A DNA stretch of 64,000 nt from Alphaproteobacteria bacterium (GTDB lineage: Bacteria > Pseudomonadota > Alphaproteobacteria > UBA828): NCBI GenBank assembly GCA_963667785.2, contig CAXXMU010000005.1, positions 96,001 through 160,000 on the forward strand, in the 5' to 3' direction. Shown here one piece after another: positions 2 through 22,177 of the stretch. The notes under the pieces were generated by a model, which saw nothing but the letters and a program-made list of their open reading frames with translations, was not told the DNA's origin and ran no database searches. A program made the position numbers and the translations under genes. Within the stretch, counting starts at the first letter, position 1. Every line of letters begins with the position of its first letter.

Positions 2-3937
<3,936 letters not shown>

Positions 3938-3963
3938 CGCCGCACCGGCACGGCCACCGGTAA

Positions 3964-8226
<4,263 letters not shown>

Positions 8227-8291
8227 CGCGCGGACCAGCCGCCAGCCGCTAGAGCATTTTCCGACCTGACGGGTTCACGGCGGTCCGAACG

Positions 8292-8405
8292 GCACCCACC
8301 TCCCCCTGTCCCCCTCCCCCAAAGGCGGAGGGGGAACGTAGGTAGCGCCGCTCTGCTCCCCCTCTCCGCCCCCGGGGGCGGAGAGGGCCGGGGTGAGGTG
8401 GGGGC
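8292..8405. repeat. Alphaproteobacterial REP-like paired hairpins between convergent genes; possible terminator function
   Basis: CCCCCTCC-cccaaaggc-GGAGGGGG stem and perfect palindrome CCCTCTCCGCCCCCGGGGGCGGAGAGGG followed by ccGGGGTGAGG. Confidence 0.7.
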
Positions 8406-8487
8406 GTCTGGGCCGTACTGCTGGCAGAAAGAGGAACGTGCGGCAACCGGGCGCGACTCCGTCCGGTCAGGGCCCGCCTCGGCCGAG

Positions 8488-9732
8488 TCAGGCGGAGGCC
8501 CGGGCCACCGGCGGGATGTAGTCCTCCAGGTCCTCCTCGCCGAAGCGCACGGTGCGGCCCAGCTCGGCGGAGCGGTAGAGCGCCATCAGGATCTCGGTCA
8601 CGGCAAGCCCGTCGCGGAAGGTCTCGGAAGGCGTCGCGCCGGTGCGGAAGCACTCCACCATGTGGCGGTTCTCGCTGGTATAGCCGTAGACGCCCGCCTC
8701 GTCCTCGAGCGCCGGCATCAGCCCCTGCTCGGCGTTCTGCTTCTCCACCAGATCCTCGCCGGCGGCACCCTTCACGGCGCGCGAGATGAAGACCTTGAGC
8801 CCGGTGCCGAGCGAGGAGAACTCCATCGAGTATTCCGGCCCCAGCAGCTCGAGCTGGATGCGGAGCCCTGCGCCCACATAGGCCCAGGAGGTGGTGGTCT
8901 CGATCATCGCCTCGTTGCCGTCGGGGTCCTCCAGCACCAGGGTGCCGCGGGCGAAATCCTCGGCGGGCCGGCGGCCGTAGTCGACCTCGCGCCCCATCTC
9001 GCGCTTGAGCCGGCGCACGTAGGCCGGCCGGGTCCACTTGAGGTTGGCGATGGTGGCGTTGGCGCTGATCACCTTCAGCGAATCGCGCGATTCGCCCGGC
9101 GCGGTCAGCAGGTGGCGGGCGACCTCGACCGAGTGGCACATCATGTCAGACAGCACGCCGCCGCCCTGCCTCTCCCCCTGCCAGAACCAGGGCATGTGCG
9201 GGCCGGAATGCTCCTCGGCCGCGCGCGCGAGGTAGGGCCGGCCGGTGAGCGGCACGGCGCGGCGCCAGATGATCTCCTTGCCGCGCTCGACCGCCGTCGA
9301 GAAGACCTGGTTCTCAAGATAGCCGGTGGCGAGCCGGGCGTCGTCCGCGAGCCGGACCATGGCACGGGCCTCGGCGAGGTTGCGGGCGAGCGGCTTCTCG
9401 CAGGCGATGCCGCGGAGCCTCTTGCCGCCCTTCACCGCCTTGTGGATCGCCTGCATGGTGGCGACGCGGGTGTCGTTGGGCGAGAGGATCCAGAGCGCGT
9501 CCACGTCCTTCGCTGCGATCAGCCCGGCGAGCGAGCGGTGGGCGGTGCAGGGGCCGAGACCGAGCTCGTCGGCGCGCGCGGCCAGCGCCGCGCGGCTCTC
9601 CCTCGACGGGCTGTAGACCCCGGTGATGGCGCAGTTGCGCACGCCGGTGAAGGATTCGAGATGGAAGCGGGCGATGAAGCCCGCGCCGATCATCCCGATA
9701 CGCAGCGTCTTCAGCGGTTTGCGCCGGGCCAT
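8488..9732 (-). CDS. Gfo/Idh/MocA family oxidoreductase
   Basis: IGMIGAGFIA Rossmann start, CEKPLA, GGGVLSDMMCH motifs. Confidence 0.9.
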   Translation of the reverse strand: MARRKPLKTLRIGMIGAGFIARFHLESFTGVRNCAITGVYSPSRESRAALAARADELGLGPCTAHRSLAGLIAAKDVDALWILSPNDTRVATMQAIHKAVKGGKRLRGIACEKPLARNLAEARAMVRLADDARLATGYLENQVFSTAVERGKEIIWRRAVPLTGRPYLARAAEEHSGPHMPWFWQGERQGGGVLSDMMCHSVEVARHLLTAPGESRDSLKVISANATIANLKWTRPAYVRRLKREMGREVDYGRRPAEDFARGTLVLEDPDGNEAMIETTTSWAYVGAGLRIQLELLGPEYSMEFSSLGTGLKVFISRAVKGAAGEDLVEKQNAEQGLMPALEDEAGVYGYTSENRHMVECFRTGATPSETFRDGLAVTEILMALYRSAELGRTVRFGEEDLEDYIPPVARASA

Positions 9733-15741: not shown

Positions 15742-15918
15742 TCATCTTCCCTCCCCGTCCGCCACGGGATCGAAGTCGCTCGTGGGCGCCCGGCAGTCGG
15801 GGCAGCACCAGTCGTCCGGCAGATCCTCGAAGCGGGTGCCCGGCGGCGTGTCGCGCTGCGCCTCGCCCCTGGCGGGATCGTAGACGTAGCCGCACCAGCG
15901 GCACTGGTAGCGCTTCAT
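15742..15918 (-). CDS. Rubredoxin
   Basis: [15 protein letters not shown]...[16 protein letters not shown]: two CxxC motifs, 58 aa. Confidence 0.93.
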
Positions 15919-15988
15919 GGCAGCCGCCGCCGAAGAATGACGACGCGCGGCCGGCCCGCCTCGGACCGGCCGCACGCCGCCGCCTCGC

Positions 15989-17257: not shown

Positions 17258-18298
17258 TCAGGCGGCCGGCACCGGCGCGTCCTCGTGCAGCAGGCGCCGG
17301 GCCTTCAGCTCCGCCCAGAACGCCGCCGGAATCGACTCCTCCAGCAGGGCCGCGTTCTGCCGCACCTCGCGCGGCGTCATGGCGCCGGGAATGACGCTCC
17401 TGACCGCGGGATGCGCCAGCACGAACTGCAGCGCCGCTGCGGGCAGCGTCACGCCGTGGCGGGTGCACACGGCCTCGAGCCGGCGCACGCGCTCCATGAC
17501 GGCGGGCGGCGCGGGCTCGTAGTTGAACTTCGCGCCGTCGACCGCGCCGGTCGCGAGGATCCCTGAGTTGAACGGCCCGCCGAGGATGATGCCCACGTCG
17601 CGCGCGAGGCAGGCGGGAAGGAAGCTCTCCAGCGGCTCCTGCTCCAGCAGGGTATAGCGGCCGGCGAGCAGGAAGCAGTCGAAGTCGCCGCGCTCGAGCA
17701 GCGCCGCGCAGGCCTGCCATTCGTTGACGCCCGCGCCGATGGCCGCGATGCGGCCCGTGGCCCTGAGCTCCTCCAGGGCGCGGTAGCCGCCGCCCTCGAA
17801 GAGCTCGCGCACCTTCTCGTCCGCCAGCGCCTGGCTGCCGTGGGTCCAGACGTCCACGTCGTGAACGAGCAGGATGTCGAGAGCCTCGATCCGCAGCCGC
17901 CGCAGGCTCGATTCCAGGCTGCGCATCACGCCGTCATAGGTGTAGTCGAACACCACCTTCTTCTGCGGCACGTCGACGAATTGCGGCGTCTCGGTCGCCT
18001 CCTCGGCCGGGCAGTCGACGATGAGCCGCCCGATCTTGCTGGAGAGCACGACCATCTCGCGCCCCATGGCGTCGAGCGCGGTGCCGAAGCGCTCCTCCGA
18101 GAGACCGAGGCCGTAGAAGGGCGCGGTATCGAAGAACCTGATGCCGCTTGCATGGGCCGCGCGGAGCGTGGCCTGGGCGTCCTCCTCCGACACGCCGCGA
18201 TAGAGATTGCCGAGCGGCGCGCCGCCGAAGCCGAGCCGCGTGAGCCCGAGGGGGCGGGAGGTGCGCGCGTTGAGCAGCGCCGTGTCGCCTGCCTTCAC
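17258..18298 (-). CDS. Aldo/keto reductase (aldose/pyridoxal dehydrogenase-like subgroup)
   Basis: LGFGGAPLGNLY, FDTAPFYG, SSKIG, LLVHD, GGPFNSGILA. Confidence 0.9.
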   Translation of the reverse strand: MKAGDTALLNARTSRPLGLTRLGFGGAPLGNLYRGVSEEDAQATLRAAHASGIRFFDTAPFYGLGLSEERFGTALDAMGREMVVLSSKIGRLIVDCPAEEATETPQFVDVPQKKVVFDYTYDGVMRSLESSLRRLRIEALDILLVHDVDVWTHGSQALADEKVRELFEGGGYRALEELRATGRIAAIGAGVNEWQACAALLERGDFDCFLLAGRYTLLEQEPLESFLPACLARDVGIILGGPFNSGILATGAVDGAKFNYEPAPPAVMERVRRLEAVCTRHGVTLPAAALQFVLAHPAVRSVIPGAMTPREVRQNAALLEESIPAAFWAELKARRLLHEDAPVPAA

Positions 18299-18326
18299 CG
18301 ATCGATTTCCCTGCCGCTGCCGCCCC

Positions 18327-18389
18327 TTAGGAGCGTGTCCGTTTCACCTGGAAACGCTCCAGACTCCTTGTCGCTCGCGGCAGCCGGCC
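18327..18389 (-). repeat. Truncated inverted copy (3' part) of the 151-bp structured repeat
   Basis: Reverse complement reads ggccggctgccgcgagcgacaaggagtctggagcgtttccaggtgaaacggacacgctcctaa, matching the 3' part of copies at 20781 and 52547. Confidence 0.85.
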
Positions 18390-18396
18390 GTCCAGC

Positions 18397-18528
18397 GATT
18401 CCGTACGCCTGCCGGCGCGACAACTCCGCGCGCCTGCCGGCTGTCATTGGATTCCGCGCGCCTGCCGGCGCGACAACTCCGCGCGCCTGCCGGCTGTCAT
18501 TGGATTCCGCGCGCCTGCCGGCGCGACA
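18397..18528 (+). repeat. Tandem repeat, 53-bp unit x ~2.5 (five copies of core tccgcgcgcctgccggc)
   Basis: Units start at 18397, 18450, 18503; unit gattccgcgcgcctgccggcgcgacaactccgcgcgcctgccggctgtcattg. Confidence 0.95.
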
Positions 18529-18944
18529 GTGAGTCCGGCGGCGGGCCATGTCAACGGCGCCGCAGGCTGTGCGGCGCGACAGCGGCGCCGTGCGTTCCGG
18601 GTGCGAACCCCGGCCGAGGGACCGGAATGGGTTCCGTCCGCACGGCTCGATCGGCTAGAAGACCCCGATGGAGCCGACCAGGGTCTCGGGGCCGGCATGC
18701 CGGCCCTGAGACGAACGAGCTTGGGTTTTCTCGCATCCGGTGGTCCATCATCGGGGGCACGTCCATCGTGGTCCGTCCTGGCTCCCGCGCCTACGGGGAC
18801 CAACCGGTGAGGGGTGGTCGACGGTGAGGAGCCCAATCGGCCACCTCACCCGAGGGTCTGGCGGAAGCCTCTATCCCCCTCGTGCAATGCAGGAGCGGGC
18901 TCCGGCTCCCTACGTGGAGCCGCGGGACGGCACAGGGTGACGCG

Positions 18945-20009
18945 ATGTCCATGTTTCGCGCCTCACCCCGGGATGTCGCCGCCTGGCTCGAGCAAAACCG
19001 GGTGGAGCATGTCGTTCTAAGGTATGGACCCCGCACGCTCGACACGCGGGTGGGGGACGTGGACCTGCTGATGGACGACCGGGCGATCGCCGCTCTCAAG
19101 ACGGCGTTCCGGGGCCGGAGATCGGGCACCAAGATCGACGTTTACGGGATCGAGGGGCTGCACGGGAGCGACTACCACGGGTTCCCCCACCTGCCGGAGC
19201 GGCTGGGCCGGCAAATCCTGGCCCGGCGGCGCCGGGTTGCAGGCGTCTGGGTGCCGCATCCGCTGGACGAGCTGAACGGCCTGCTCTACCACCTGGCCTA
19301 TCACAAGAGCGTTCAGTCCGGGGTTCACGTCAGCGATCCGGCGCGCTCCGCACCGACCCAAGGGACCGAGCGTCTCGCGGCCCTCCAGACGGAATGCGGC
19401 ATCGCCGTCACCTGCACTCTCGAGGGCTTTCACCGCCATCTCGAGTCCTGCGGCCTGACGGTCAGCGAGGCACGCCTCGTCGCCTATATCGAGCACGACT
19501 TCCGTCACGGACGAAAGTCCCTCTTCCACGCCCTGCTGCAGGACCGGCATCCGGGCGAGCTGAACCTGTTCGTGATCCGCGCAGTGGCGCTAAGATACGG
19601 CAAGAGCGAGGCGCTGATCGAGCGCCTCGGCGAGCGCTACCGGATCGTCTCCGTCAAGGCCATCGACCGGTGGACCCGGCTGACCCGGGCCGGACGCATG
19701 CGCGGCGGCAAGTGGCGCCGTGGCGGAAGGCCTCGCATCGCGGTCGTGGTGTTCGATCCCGCACCCGTCCCCACCACGGCCGAAGAGCGCGAGGTCCATC
19801 CCTTCGTGTTCAACCGCAACCAGTTCGTCAAGGTCGAGTGGCGCGACTGGTTTTGCCGTGAGACCGCAGCGCGCGCCAAGGACAACCCGATTCATTCGAC
19901 CGACAACGAGGCGGAGGCGCTGGGCCATCTGCCGCTGTTCTTCTCGGCCGAGGAGCGGGAGCAGATCAGGCGGTCCCTGCCGGCGCTGCGGGCGGAGGCT
20001 TCACGGTGA
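18945..20009 (+). CDS. Hypothetical protein: N-terminal nucleotidyltransferase-like domain plus C-terminal NDP-kinase-like domain
   Basis: VVLR...GDVDLL and KIDVY; C-terminal LFVIR..AL...IERL...RIV.VK and NPIHSTDNEAEA...LFF resemble NDK. Confidence 0.65.
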   Translation: MSMFRASPRDVAAWLEQNRVEHVVLRYGPRTLDTRVGDVDLLMDDRAIAALKTAFRGRRSGTKIDVYGIEGLHGSDYHGFPHLPERLGRQILARRRRVAGVWVPHPLDELNGLLYHLAYHKSVQSGVHVSDPARSAPTQGTERLAALQTECGIAVTCTLEGFHRHLESCGLTVSEARLVAYIEHDFRHGRKSLFHALLQDRHPGELNLFVIRAVALRYGKSEALIERLGERYRIVSVKAIDRWTRLTRAGRMRGGKWRRGGRPRIAVVVFDPAPVPTTAEEREVHPFVFNRNQFVKVEWRDWFCRETAARAKDNPIHSTDNEAEALGHLPLFFSAEEREQIRRSLPALRAEASR

Positions 20010-20815
20010 GGGCGCTATCCCGCCTCTTGCGGCGCGAGTACGCGAGCCTGCGCATCGCCCCGCGCAAGCGGCGATTGATCGGGCAGCTCTCGACACACTT
20101 CGAGCACCCGGTCTCGCTGTATCGAGCCGGGTCACGCGGGCGGGACAGCGTGTTTCTGGTGAGGGACAGCAGCGCAATCCTGGGCGCGTTGCGCCTGTGC
20201 AATCCCTATCTGCGACGGAAGCCGCTTTCTGCCGACATGCCCTTCACCACGCTGAGCGACGGCGAGCGCCTCTCGCGCGAGTGGCGCTGCTACGCCGAAG
20301 CGGGCCCCGCGGGTATCACGCCCAGCCCCCTGTGGCGCGACGAGGACGCGTTGATGTGCGCATTTGTCGCGGGGCCCCGCTTTTCCGACCGGCTGTCGCA
20401 AGACCCGTCGTCGTTCTGGGGCCTGCTGGTCCGCGCCAGCCGCGCTCTCGCCAGCCTGCATGCTCTCGGCATTACCCATATGGATGCGTCGCTCGCCAAC
20501 ATGATCGACACTGGCGACGGCTGCCGGTTGATCGATTTCGAATACGGGCCGCGGGCCGGTATCACCCTGGAACAGCAGATGGCCTACGACCACCTGCGCC
20601 TGCTGGAAAGCAGCCTCAAGTTCATGCCCGCCGGAGAGCAGACGAGGATCGACACCTGGCTCGACGCGCTGGACGCGGTGCTGCCGCAAGAGGTGCGCGG
20701 GGTCGATGTCGCACCCCTGGCTCCCGCCCTCACGCGGGTGCTGGCGTGGCGCGATCTCAGCCACCGGCTGGCGGCGATCTTTAGAGCGTATCCGTCTTTG
20801 ACGGATACGCGATAG
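20006..20815 (+). CDS. Protein-kinase-like superfamily phosphotransferase (Kdo/WaaP/RIO/APH-like)
   Basis: LHALGITHMDASLANM catalytic loop and LIDFE; GTGA overlap with upstream gene; last codons lie inside the repeat. Confidence 0.75.
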   Translation: MRALSRLLRREYASLRIAPRKRRLIGQLSTHFEHPVSLYRAGSRGRDSVFLVRDSSAILGALRLCNPYLRRKPLSADMPFTTLSDGERLSREWRCYAEAGPAGITPSPLWRDEDALMCAFVAGPRFSDRLSQDPSSFWGLLVRASRALASLHALGITHMDASLANMIDTGDGCRLIDFEYGPRAGITLEQQMAYDHLRLLESSLKFMPAGEQTRIDTWLDALDAVLPQEVRGVDVAPLAPALTRVLAWRDLSHRLAAIFRAYPSLTDTR

Positions 20816-20931
20816 GCCGCGACTGCGGCCCGCCGCTTATGCGGCGCCCTCGCGGAGGCGCCGGCCGCAGGCCGGCTGCCGTGAGCGACAAAGAGGCTGG
20901 AGCGTTTCCGTGTAAAGCGGACACGCTCTAG
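20781..20931 (+). mobile_element. 151-bp MITE-like structured repeat with terminal inverted repeats TAGAGCGT(A/G)TCCG
   Basis: Near-identical to 52547-52697; multiple internal hairpins; TTAG/CTAG ends. Confidence 0.8.
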
Positions 20932-21253
20932 ATCTATCGACGAGCGTGGCTGACGACACTCGGCGTGCCGGGGCGGCGGGGAGGAGTCCGCGCCCTCCTC
21001 CCTGCCCGCCTACCGGCGCGCCGCCGCGCACACCCGTCACTCCGCCGGGCAGCCGTGCTCCGGTGCGATCATGGGACGCCTCACGCCGTTCCGCCGCACC
21101 CCGCGGCGGTGTCCCAATGGCATAGACGACCAACCGAATAACAATAAATTATAGGATGAATCAGAATTCGGTGTTGGACCATATTCGAAGGCGCCGCCAC
21201 ATGGTGAACTGCGCGACATGCAGTTGATCCCCTGCGGGACGGGGAACGCCACT

Positions 21254-22177
21254 ATGTTCGAGAAGCGAAGAGATCTGATCAAGTTCCTCGCCGTGGTCGA
21301 GACCGGCGCCATACTCGCCGCCGCCGACAAGCTCGGCATCTCGCAGCCCGCGCTTTCCCGGGTTGTCGCGAGGATCGAGCGCCAGTTCGGCGGGCGACTG
21401 TTCGAGCGCCTGCCCACCGGCGTCCGCCTCACGCCGCTCGGCGTGGTGGTCGCCGATCTGGCGCGCCACATCCTCTCCGAGATCGAAGCCGCCGAGGAGC
21501 AGATCGGTGCGACGCTCTCCGGCCGTACCGGCTGCCTGCGCGTCACCGCGGGCCCGATGTGGATGCAGGCCATACTCCCCGTGGCCATCGCCAAATTCCA
21601 CAGGACCTATCCCGGCGTGGAATTCAGGCTGCACACCGCCACCCGGCACGAGGGCATCCGCCTCCTCACCGACGGCGAGACCGACCTCCACTGCGGCGGC
21701 ATCGAGACCGAAGAGCCCCTGCCGCAATTTCTCAGGCACGAACGACTCCTCGACATGACCTGGGGTATCGTCGCCCACAAGGACCATCCGCTCCATTCGC
21801 GAACGGTGAGCGACGACGCGCTCGTCGACTACCCGTGGATCGACTACGACGCGTCGCTGCGGGCGGTGAACGGTGCGCGGCCGGTGCTGGCCGACATCAT
21901 CGACCAGCTCCACAACAGAACGGGACGGCGGGTGAGGGTCGCCATCCGCGGCGGCTCGGCCAGCCTCTCCCTGATGGAAACGGGCCCCTACCTCTCGTGG
22001 CTCTCGCTGACCTTCCTCGAGAGACTGCCCGAGCCTGCGCTCCGACCACTGGCGGTGGCCTTCGGCACGCACCGCTACCGGGCCGGGATCGTGTCGCGGC
22101 GTTCGTCGGAGGATCGTGCCCCGTTCGGACTCTTCAAGGCGATCCTGCGGGAAGAGATCTCGGCAAACCACACGTGA
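21254..22177 (+). CDS. LysR family transcriptional regulator
   Basis: FLAVVETGAILAAADKLGISQPALSRVVARIERQFGGRLFER HTH. Confidence 0.93.
   Translation: MFEKRRDLIKFLAVVETGAILAAADKLGISQPALSRVVARIERQFGGRLFERLPTGVRLTPLGVVVADLARHILSEIEAAEEQIGATLSGRTGCLRVTAGPMWMQAILPVAIAKFHRTYPGVEFRLHTATRHEGIRLLTDGETDLHCGGIETEEPLPQFLRHERLLDMTWGIVAHKDHPLHSRTVSDDALVDYPWIDYDASLRAVNGARPVLADIIDQLHNRTGRRVRVAIRGGSASLSLMETGPYLSWLSLTFLERLPEPALRPLAVAFGTHRYRAGIVSRRSSEDRAPFGLFKAILREEISANHT

Follow-up and report, generated by a model that had tools for sequence, protein, structure and literature searches.

What reaction would call for a nucleotidyltransferase, a relative of nucleoside diphosphate kinase and a further kinase to be encoded side by side? 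The question is raised by a two-gene cassette at positions 18,945-20,815 of a 64,000-nt stretch of DNA from an Alphaproteobacteria bacterium (UBA828 lineage; GenBank assembly GCA_963667785.2, contig CAXXMU010000005.1, positions 96,001 to 160,000, forward strand), which is called the window throughout. The first open reading frame (ORF), ORF1, is predicted to encode a nucleotidyltransferase (NTase)-like domain followed by a nucleoside diphosphate kinase (NDK)-like domain, and ORF2 a protein-kinase-like (PKL) kinase. A first-pass annotation of the sequence had read the pair as a phosphorylate-then-nucleotidylate module of an architecture unknown to it. Sequence comparison identifies the pair as the split form of a large three-part family and not as a one-off, and this widespread NTase-NDK-like-kinase family is not named in Pfam, NCBIfam or PADLOC. 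We favour, at a probability of about 0.55, a cytoplasmic enzyme that decorates a cell-surface glycan, or its lipid- or nucleotide-linked precursor, with a phosphate-based group, because members of the family are fused to glycosyltransferases (GTs) and the fused form lies inside polysaccharide clusters.

A split form of a fused three-domain family

In the ORF list, ORF1 occupies 18,945-20,009 on the + strand (354 aa counted from its ATG) and ORF2 occupies 20,006-20,815 on the same strand (269 aa, GTG start). The two overlap by GTGA at 20,006-20,009, where the GTG start of ORF2 and the TGA stop of ORF1 can be read directly from the sequence, as the first-pass annotation had noted. Judging from ORF spacing, the junction is similarly tight in most related loci. 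A longer ORF1 could begin at a GTG at 18,882; the ATG at 18,945 was taken as the start because homologues start there.

An exhaustive search matched ORF1 to 597 representative clusters (50% identity), of which 319 reached E ≤ 1e-10, and many of the 597 are proteins of 400-1800 aa that hold the whole ORF1 module. These fused forms had not appeared in a word-index search for longer homologues. Among 52 long relatives scanned for known families, 10 carry a Pkinase or APH domain C-terminal to the module, while 35 have no recognizable family at all. Alignment of 15 fused proteins of about 770 aa (A3) showed that about 170 aa of N-terminal extension come first, followed by the NTase, NDK-like and kinase parts in that order. 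In profile comparisons with hhalign, the ORF1 alignment (A1) covers positions 182-545 of A3 (352 columns, probability 100%, E 8e-61), and the ORF2 alignment (A2) falls immediately C-terminal to it, at 577-673 (92 columns, probability 93.6%, E 2e-7). The kinase part of A3 itself matches solved Hanks-type kinases at E 2e-9. ORF1 and ORF2 map consecutively onto the fused proteins, and the window cassette is therefore a three-domain enzyme divided over two translationally coupled genes. The first-pass annotation knew of no described system built in this way, and its statement stands in that no Pfam, NCBIfam or PADLOC family and no paper was found, but the pair belongs to a large family. A literature search on NDK-like and nucleotidyltransferase proteins in lipopolysaccharide (LPS) or polysaccharide settings, judged by titles and the openings of abstracts, likewise returned nothing on this family.

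Besides the window, 50 genome loci with ORF1 relatives were collected. Their hosts are uncultured Alphaproteobacteria (82-85% identity), Caulobacter, Ectothiorhodospiraceae, Verrucomicrobiota, Kiritimatiellia, Lentisphaeraceae, Micavibrio and Sneathiella. A relative of ORF2 adjoins the ORF1 homologue in 39 of the 50, mostly directly downstream on the same strand and in four loci (L033, L034, L035 and L049) on the opposite strand. In four of the 11 loci lacking an ORF2 relative the sequence breaks off at ORF1 or shortly beyond it, which leaves 39 of 46 informative loci with the pair, and the remaining seven all belong to the Planctomycetota-Verrucomicrobiota-Chlamydiota (PVC) group.

In the Kiritimatiellia loci L023, L024, L027 and L041, ORF1 sits between a conserved 1128-aa protein without a Pfam family and a GFO/IDH/MocA oxidoreductase; this kinase-less arrangement may be a variant system. 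A 267-aa neighbour in one of these loci (L023:7813-8613) was considered as a divergent ORF2 and rejected (hhalign probability 0.2%).

Within the host lineage the cassette is a rare accessory, present in 1 of 20 other species of the same genus and in 0 of 20 more distant relatives. The sole homologue of ORF1 within the genus (L136, G020:C5:751500-762500, approximately 1754-8884) is interrupted: an insert that carries one gene for a transposase of the IS256 type (Mutator family) and a Mu-like rve integrase separates its two parts by about 6 kb, and a second copy of the transposase (398 aa) lies outside the insert, at the place expected for ORF2. When 400 sampled genomes of the phylum were searched with the A3 model, with two candidates scored in each, the only match was the window's own.

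The nucleotidyltransferase-like domain of ORF1

By word-index search ORF1 has 131 homologues of 320-470 aa, and all the named ones are called hypothetical; the lone Pfam domain among them is a GT1 fusion in P0028. ORF1 itself has no family match in Pfam, NCBIfam or PADLOC, even at E ≤ 1, and its 30 nearest clusters in the ESM Atlas are all labelled "hypothetical protein". Its fold was read from an AlphaFold2 (AF2) model of the two-domain protein, for which the 37 sequences of A1 served as input (predicted local distance difference test score [pLDDT] 94.5, predicted template modelling score 0.91). A1 reaches down to 36% identity and has 29 invariant columns, 25 of which lie from residue 191 onward. 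Conservation of single residues was counted over 120 close and 124 distant relatives aligned to the family model, and is given below in that order.

The first-pass annotation had proposed an NTase fold for the N-terminal part of ORF1 from its VVLR, GDVDLL and IDVY motifs. The motifs are present, and a VIA-align fold search of the model agrees with the proposal. Residues 5-178 (18,957-19,478, + strand) match the Pol-beta-type NTase MenT1 (8an4_A) at Z 8.3 (root-mean-square deviation [rmsd] 3.5, 124 residues aligned), a value that exceeds the tool's stated background only moderately, followed by the aminoglycoside enzyme ANT(2'') (4xje_A, Z 7.3), LnuA (4wh5_A, Z 6.7) and TM1012 (2ewr_A, Z 6.4); TglT (Z 5.2) and MenT4 (Z 4.6) match more weakly. 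A putative metal-binding pair, D38-x-D40 (19,056-19,064), is kept in 103/120 and 116/124 relatives at D38 and in 113/120 and 117/124 at D40. The putative third acidic residue, D65 on the IDVY strand (19,137-19,139), is kept in 112/120 and 115/124, and two basic residues are similarly preserved (R26, 107/120 and 118/124; K121, 111/120 and 120/124). According to the model, the N-terminal part of ORF1 has the minimal fold of Pol-beta NTases, extended by helices, together with an acidic triad.

The NDK-like domain of ORF1

Likewise, the ELNLFVIR, RIVSVK, PRIAVVVF and NPIHSTDNEAEA...LFF segments, which had suggested an NDK relationship by eye, are present in the C-terminal part of ORF1. In the AF2 model, residues 202-354 (19,548-20,006, + strand) take up an NDK fold, with matches to 3q83_A (Z 10.2, rmsd 3.5, 126/149 aligned, model residues 204-354), 1xqi_A (Z 10.2) and the mimivirus NDK 2b8p_A (Z 9.9). 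The top Foldseek rows for ORF1 are all NDKs, with a best E of 2.2e-3 and none reaching E 0.001. ORF1 has no match to the NDK family PF00334 at E ≤ 1 and so does not reach the Pfam gathering threshold of 27 bits; among the distant relatives, 3 of 52 score 20.6-22.2 bits on the first strand, below the same cut-off. The NDK assignment rests on the predicted fold because sequence-level similarity is not significant, and since the sequence link is merely suggestive in its register, we term the domain NDK-like and not NDK.

The counterpart of the NDK phosphohistidine is His317, encoded at 19,893-19,895 as previously annotated, within the motif HSTDNEAEA (19,893-19,919, + strand). The whole run H317, S318, T319, D320, N321, E322, A323, E324 and A325 is invariant in the 37 sequences of A1, and the NDK signature NxxH(G)SD is recovered on strand 4 as N314-P-I-H317-S-T-D320. 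The conservation of the histidine among homologues that the first-pass annotation had set as a check is seen: 120/120 of the close relatives and 118/124 of the distant ones have H317, and the counts for D320 are the same. Other residues of the domain are nearly as constant, namely R212 (120 and 116), R253 (120 and 118), W257 (120 and 116), K296 (120 and 117), R300 (120 and 119) and N314 (118 and 114). A second conserved element is the loop RGGKWRRGG (19,701-19,727, + strand), placed by the predicted order of secondary-structure elements, whose R253, W257, G260 and G261 do not vary among the 120 close relatives and occur in 111-118 of the 124 distant ones. By comparison with the topology of NDK, this RGGxW..GG loop presumably occupies the site of the helix hairpin that binds the nucleotide in NDK.

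Judged by residue conservation, both active sites of ORF1 look alive. The genome also encodes an ordinary ndk gene.

ORF2 is a minimal kinase

The HMD...N and DFE motifs on which the first-pass annotation had based its PKL kinase call are present in ORF2 (20,006-20,815, + strand), and the predicted structure supports the call. The AF2 model (pLDDT 95.5) matches PRPK/Bud32 in Foldseek (E 2.5e-9), and fold searches place it near RIO1 (Z 14.3), Bud32 (Z 13.9), the APH enzymes (Z 12.6-12.8; APH(3') 12.8) and WaaP (Z 12.3), with the amicoumacin and corramycin kinases also among the matches. The putative catalytic loop H158-M-D160-A-S-L-A-N165 (20,477-20,500) has H158, D160 and N165 invariant in the 33 sequences of A2. 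Equally invariant is D177-F-E179 (20,534-20,542), the counterpart of the metal-binding DFG of kinases, which aligns to IDFEF in the fused family. Further invariant residues of A2 are G42, G45, D47, R63 and E92.

By the curated cut-offs of Pfam and NCBIfam, ORF2 belongs to no named kinase subfamily. The best NCBIfam score is that of the Bud32 model TIGR03724 (E 2.2e-9, 37.1 bits against a cut-off of 125), and weak scores were obtained for the Kdo kinase KdkA (E 0.016) and the thiamine kinase ThiK (23 bits against 299). The model thus describes ORF2 as a minimal PKL kinase, closest to Bud32 and RIO, whose substrate is not readable from the fold.

Genomic context suggests a link to glycan assembly

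The first-pass annotation had left open whether the pair serves surface-glycan modification, unusual nucleotide synthesis or toxicity and defence, and had pointed to the neighbourhoods of homologues as a check. These neighbourhoods favour the first role and argue against a toxin/defence pair.

Some of the evidence lies within the proteins themselves. Long relatives of ORF1 are fused to GT4/GT1 (P0233), to GT41 and TPR (P0272 and P0323, the latter also with an FkbM methyltransferase), to TPR alone (P0251, P0261 and P0290) and to GT1 (P0028). The neighbourhood of the fused form was surveyed in metagenomes, where 243 relatives yielded 80 loci, 15 of which were examined by hand with Pfam. At least two glycan-assembly families were found in 9 of the 15 (L060, L074, L084, L085, L102, L115, L118, L120 and L126), and a single glycan-assembly gene in two more (L093 and L087). 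The families include GT1/2/4, Wzx, Wzy, Wza/Wzc, the initiating Bac_transf, NeuB with a CMP-sugar synthetase, deacetylases and a TagF-like transferase. A Wzx flippase gene directly follows the fused gene on the same strand in 4 of the 15 loci (L102, L115, L118 and L126).

Other neighbours bear on phosphate and sulfate chemistry. Proteins resembling beta-propeller phytases (PF02333) are encoded near the fused form in 3 of the 15 loci (L074:10969-12021, L115:1274-2341 and L118:16468-17805), which hints at turnover of a phosphate ester tied to the product of the family. Sulfotransferase, sulfatase or adenosine 5'-phosphosulfate (APS) kinase genes occur in 4 of the 15 (L084:3107-4111, L126:1862-2788, L093:4620-6260 and L097:1475-2899) and may link the family to chemistry with a donor like 3'-phosphoadenosine 5'-phosphosulfate (PAPS).

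The glycan context is weaker for the split form than for the fused form. In 7 of the 50 loci, spread over three phyla, the split form has a GT9 heptosyltransferase gene no more than 2.6 kb away, and an eighth locus (L047) also holds a GT9 gene somewhere along its length. In Sneathiella glossodoripedis JCM 23214 (L040) the pair adjoins a GT9 gene; the ORF1 match there spans only residues 89-341. Of the 20 split-form loci that were scanned, 9 have some glycosyltransferase at a distance of up to about 4.5 kb.

A flagellar gene also recurs beside the family. The flhA gene adjoins the split pair in Caulobacter (L011:10479-12572, a cluster shared by L013 and L046), and it is found at L057:8788-10998 beside a fused 865-aa homologue on a metagenome contig that is unrelated to these and also holds fliA. 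The recurrence may be synteny by chance, or it may connect the family with glycosylation of the flagellum.

A proposed reaction and its alternatives

Phosphate decorations of LPS, capsules and exopolysaccharides govern charge, recognition by phages and the immune system, chain length and export, and to our knowledge few types of enzyme that install them have been described. For the cassette, the scheme that seems most likely to us is one in which the kinase would transfer a phosphate from ATP to a sugar hydroxyl. The NDK-like domain would accept a phosphoryl group on His317 and hand it to a phosphate acceptor, which would either convert the sugar phosphate to a diphosphate or recharge the nucleotide used next door, and the NTase domain would then cap or activate the phosphorylated group with a nucleoside triphosphate. 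It is a tentative suggestion, which we would back at well below even odds, that the three domains jointly perform glycan chemistry that has not been described, yielding a sugar-linked diphosphate, a nucleotide-capped phosphate or a new phospho-donor made on site and resembling PAPS or cytidine diphosphate (CDP)-phosphoramidate. The particular order of kinase, NDK-like relay and NTase cap is a guess and somewhat more doubtful, and no result of this analysis bears out the phosphorylate-then-nucleotidylate order of the first-pass annotation.

Several observations weigh against the glycan-decoration reading or the chemistry sketched for it. We know of no reaction, substrate or product on record for any member of the family. 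The direct neighbours of the cassette in the window are an aldo/keto reductase (17,258-18,298, - strand, divergent), a MetE-like protein and a LysR regulator (21,218-22,177, + strand), so that no glycan gene directly adjoins it in this genome, and the nearest sugar-related gene of the window, an NAD-dependent epimerase/dehydratase, lies 3.2 kb upstream. Elsewhere, 11 of the 20 scanned split-form loci have unrelated neighbours and no nearby glycosyltransferase. Four of the 15 fused-form loci have no glycan-assembly gene; of these, L057 has flhA and fliA after the fused gene, L067 and L070 share a SPOR/GlmS layout, and L097 has an APS kinase. In the GC-rich loci L087 and L097, the scan covered part of the ORFs. 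Bud32 and RIO, the closest structural relatives of ORF2, are often ATPases or protein kinases and not sugar kinases. For the NDK-like domain, the top match of A1 in a PDB profile search is an NDK exactly at the His motif, at an E of only 0.87, and when A1 is compared by hhalign with the NDK that the genome itself encodes, the same motif aligns at a probability of only 1.4%.

The NDK-like pocket is a further such point. The active site of NDK has a Lys on strand 1 and a Glu that partners the catalytic His. By sequence register and predicted secondary structure, ORF1 has Arg212 at the position of the Lys and His328, a Tyr in 97 of the 124 distant relatives, at the position of the Glu. Given these apparent replacements, NDK chemistry is not to be assumed for ORF1. 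With Arg212, His328/Tyr and the RGGxW..GG loop, the NDK-type pocket appears to have been rebuilt, and therefore the acceptor of the domain probably differs from an ordinary nucleoside diphosphate.

The same three activities could instead act in successive steps on a soluble small molecule, producing an unusual nucleotide, a donor like PAPS or CDP-phosphoramidate, or an inactivated antibiotic. The likeness of the N-terminal domain to ANT(2'') and LnuA and that of ORF2 to the APH, amicoumacin and corramycin kinases would suit such a role, as would the cassette standing alone in the window and in 11 of the 20 scanned split-form loci, the aldo/keto reductase that is a direct neighbour in the window, L007 and L014, and the sulfation-type genes near the fused form in L084, L126, L093 and L097. 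The glycosyltransferase fusions and the placement among GT, Wzx and Wzy genes nevertheless fit a glycan or a dedicated precursor better, and donor synthesis would still serve glycan decoration, so that the two explanations overlap; taken as a separate explanation, a soluble product seems unlikely to us. We regard it as less likely still that the target is a protein, with flagellin or another surface or regulatory protein being phosphorylated or nucleotidylylated; ORF2 would then be a genuine protein kinase, or else an ATPase like Bud32 that controls ORF1. The best matches of ORF2 to PRPK/Bud32 and RIO, the Hanks-type kinase matches of the fused family (E 2e-9), the fusions to TPR and to GT41, the O-GlcNAc-transferase family, and the flhA neighbours in the L011 cluster (also L013 and L046) and, with fliA, in L057 are consistent with this. 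Yet the fold cannot separate protein kinases from sugar kinases, as WaaP (Z 12.3) and APH score nearly as high, and most of the informative contexts are polysaccharide assembly clusters and not flagellar or signalling loci. Moreover, the available portions of two reports describe PKL kinases that phosphorylate glycans, WbdD (PMC3482155) and ORF6-O7 (PMC11231755).

A toxin-antitoxin or defence pair, with ORF1 as a MenT/AbiEii-like NTase toxin and ORF2 as the kinase that neutralizes it, is very improbable. It would explain why the MenT1 toxin tops the fold matches of the N-terminal domain, with TglT and MenT4 further down. It would also suit an overlapping two-gene operon with a patchy distribution (1/20 and 0/20 among the relatives sampled), whose only copy within the genus is broken by insertion elements, and MenT toxins are reported to be regulated by phosphorylation (PMC11375011). 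Against this, PADLOC gives no match for ORF1 and a chance-level one for ORF2 (MkoA, E 0.0037), ORF1 has no Pfam match to DUF1814/AbiEii (PF08843), and the neighbours in the examined loci are metabolic, glycan or flagellar genes and form neither defence islands nor mobile elements. In addition, the NTase never occurs apart from the conserved NDK-like domain and is often fused to the kinase and to glycosyltransferases, and a toxin fused to its own antitoxin plus a glycosyltransferase makes little sense. The protein is also conserved across several phyla at 40-55% identity.

If the three domains do perform glycan chemistry of an undescribed kind, the family would stand for a class of surface-polysaccharide decoration that is both new and widespread, occurring in hundreds of uncultured lineages. 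A divergent NDK-like domain, with its His kept and its pocket rebuilt, would extend phosphohistidine chemistry of the NDK type beyond nucleotides. The split pair of the window is small, soluble and easily expressed, and would be a convenient entry to working out the reaction.

Surroundings of the cassette

The window has a G+C content of about 69%, and the cassette is flanked by long non-coding stretches, 18,299-18,944 upstream and 20,816-21,217 downstream. An aldo/keto reductase gene adjoins the cassette also in the Caulobacter-type loci (L007:11893-12891 and L014:10414-11358), there downstream on the same strand. A scan of 18,250-21,250 for promoters and terminators found nothing.

Each flank holds a copy of a dispersed 59-nt repeat, which flanks the cassette and is not a functional part of it. 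The upstream copy lies at 18,331-18,389, and the downstream copy (20,870-20,928) is inverted and 88% complementary to it. Searching the genome with this repeat gave 40 matches, the query copy included, one of them upstream of ndk (L051). As specific evidence that the inverted copies mark a composite mobile element, the repeats were discounted in view of the 40 matches across the genome; probably, the repeat is an intergenic element of the repetitive extragenic palindromic (REP) or miniature inverted-repeat transposable element (MITE) kind. Directly after the upstream copy, inside the 650-bp gap before ORF1, a 53-nt unit is repeated three times in tandem (18,376-18,534, 72-100% identity to the reference copy). 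Farther upstream, a 77-aa ORF at 15,742-15,975 (- strand) has two CxxC pairs and, by eye only, the look of a rubredoxin.

Comparison with known systems

In NDK (PF00334), the likeness to ORF1 extends from the shared fold of the C-terminal domain (Z 10.2 over 126 of 149 residues) to the N-x-x-H-(S/G)-(T/S)-D motif on the equivalent strand, the following helix that ends in FF and a basic residue that closes strand 1. The ORF1 domain differs in falling below the Pfam threshold, in having Arg212 for the strand-1 Lys and His328 or Tyr for the Glu partner, and in being fused to an NTase domain. It also has the invariant RGGxW..GG loop, apparently in place of the helix hairpin that holds the base in NDK.

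With MenT/AbiEii (DUF1814), ANT(2'') and LnuA, ORF1 shares a minimal Pol-beta fold with DxD and a third Asp in the model. NTases of the Pol-beta type usually carry a glycine-serine motif before the DxD. This motif is not evident in ORF1, where a conserved Leu-Arg (R26) precedes the DxD instead. ORF1 differs further in having no sequence-family match, in the constant linkage of its NTase-like domain to the NDK-like one, and in a family context of glycan biosynthesis and not of toxin-antitoxin systems or resistance.

ORF2 resembles Bud32/PRPK, RIO and WaaP/KdkA in its minimal kinase fold with HxDxxxxN and the DFG-like DFE. Bud32 occurs also fused to its enzyme partner Kae1, and the fusion protein 3en9 is one of the structure matches of ORF2. 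In contrast to these kinases, the strand-3 Lys is replaced by the invariant Arg63 in the split form, while the fused form has Lys. Furthermore, the partner of ORF2 is an NTase-NDK-like protein and not Kae1 or the ribosome, and its scores are far below the curated cut-offs of Bud32 (37 bits against 125) and KdkA (E 0.016).

The nearest characterized PKL kinases that act on glycans, as far as the available portions of PMC3482155 and PMC11231755 describe them, are WbdD of Escherichia coli O9a and Klebsiella pneumoniae O3 (PMC3482155) and ORF6-O7 of K. pneumoniae O7 (PMC11231755), both of which phosphorylate a glycan and act as O-antigen chain terminators. In the same portions, no NTase or NDK-like domain is mentioned for either of them, and the main text of PMC11231755 has 0 mentions of either. 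Unlike WbdD-type enzymes, the window pair has no methyltransferase family by Pfam or NCBIfam and no long coiled coil in the models. WbdD-type systems depend on ABC transporters, whereas the contexts examined here are mostly of the Wzx/Wzy type, and no O-antigen ABC transporter was found near the window cassette. The common ground is that WbdD and ORF6-O7 are cytoplasmic PKL kinases from polysaccharide clusters, often of several modules together with glycosyltransferases and methyltransferases (PMC3482155, PMC11231755, available portions), an arrangement that is paralleled in the present family by P0323 with its FkbM methyltransferase and GT41.

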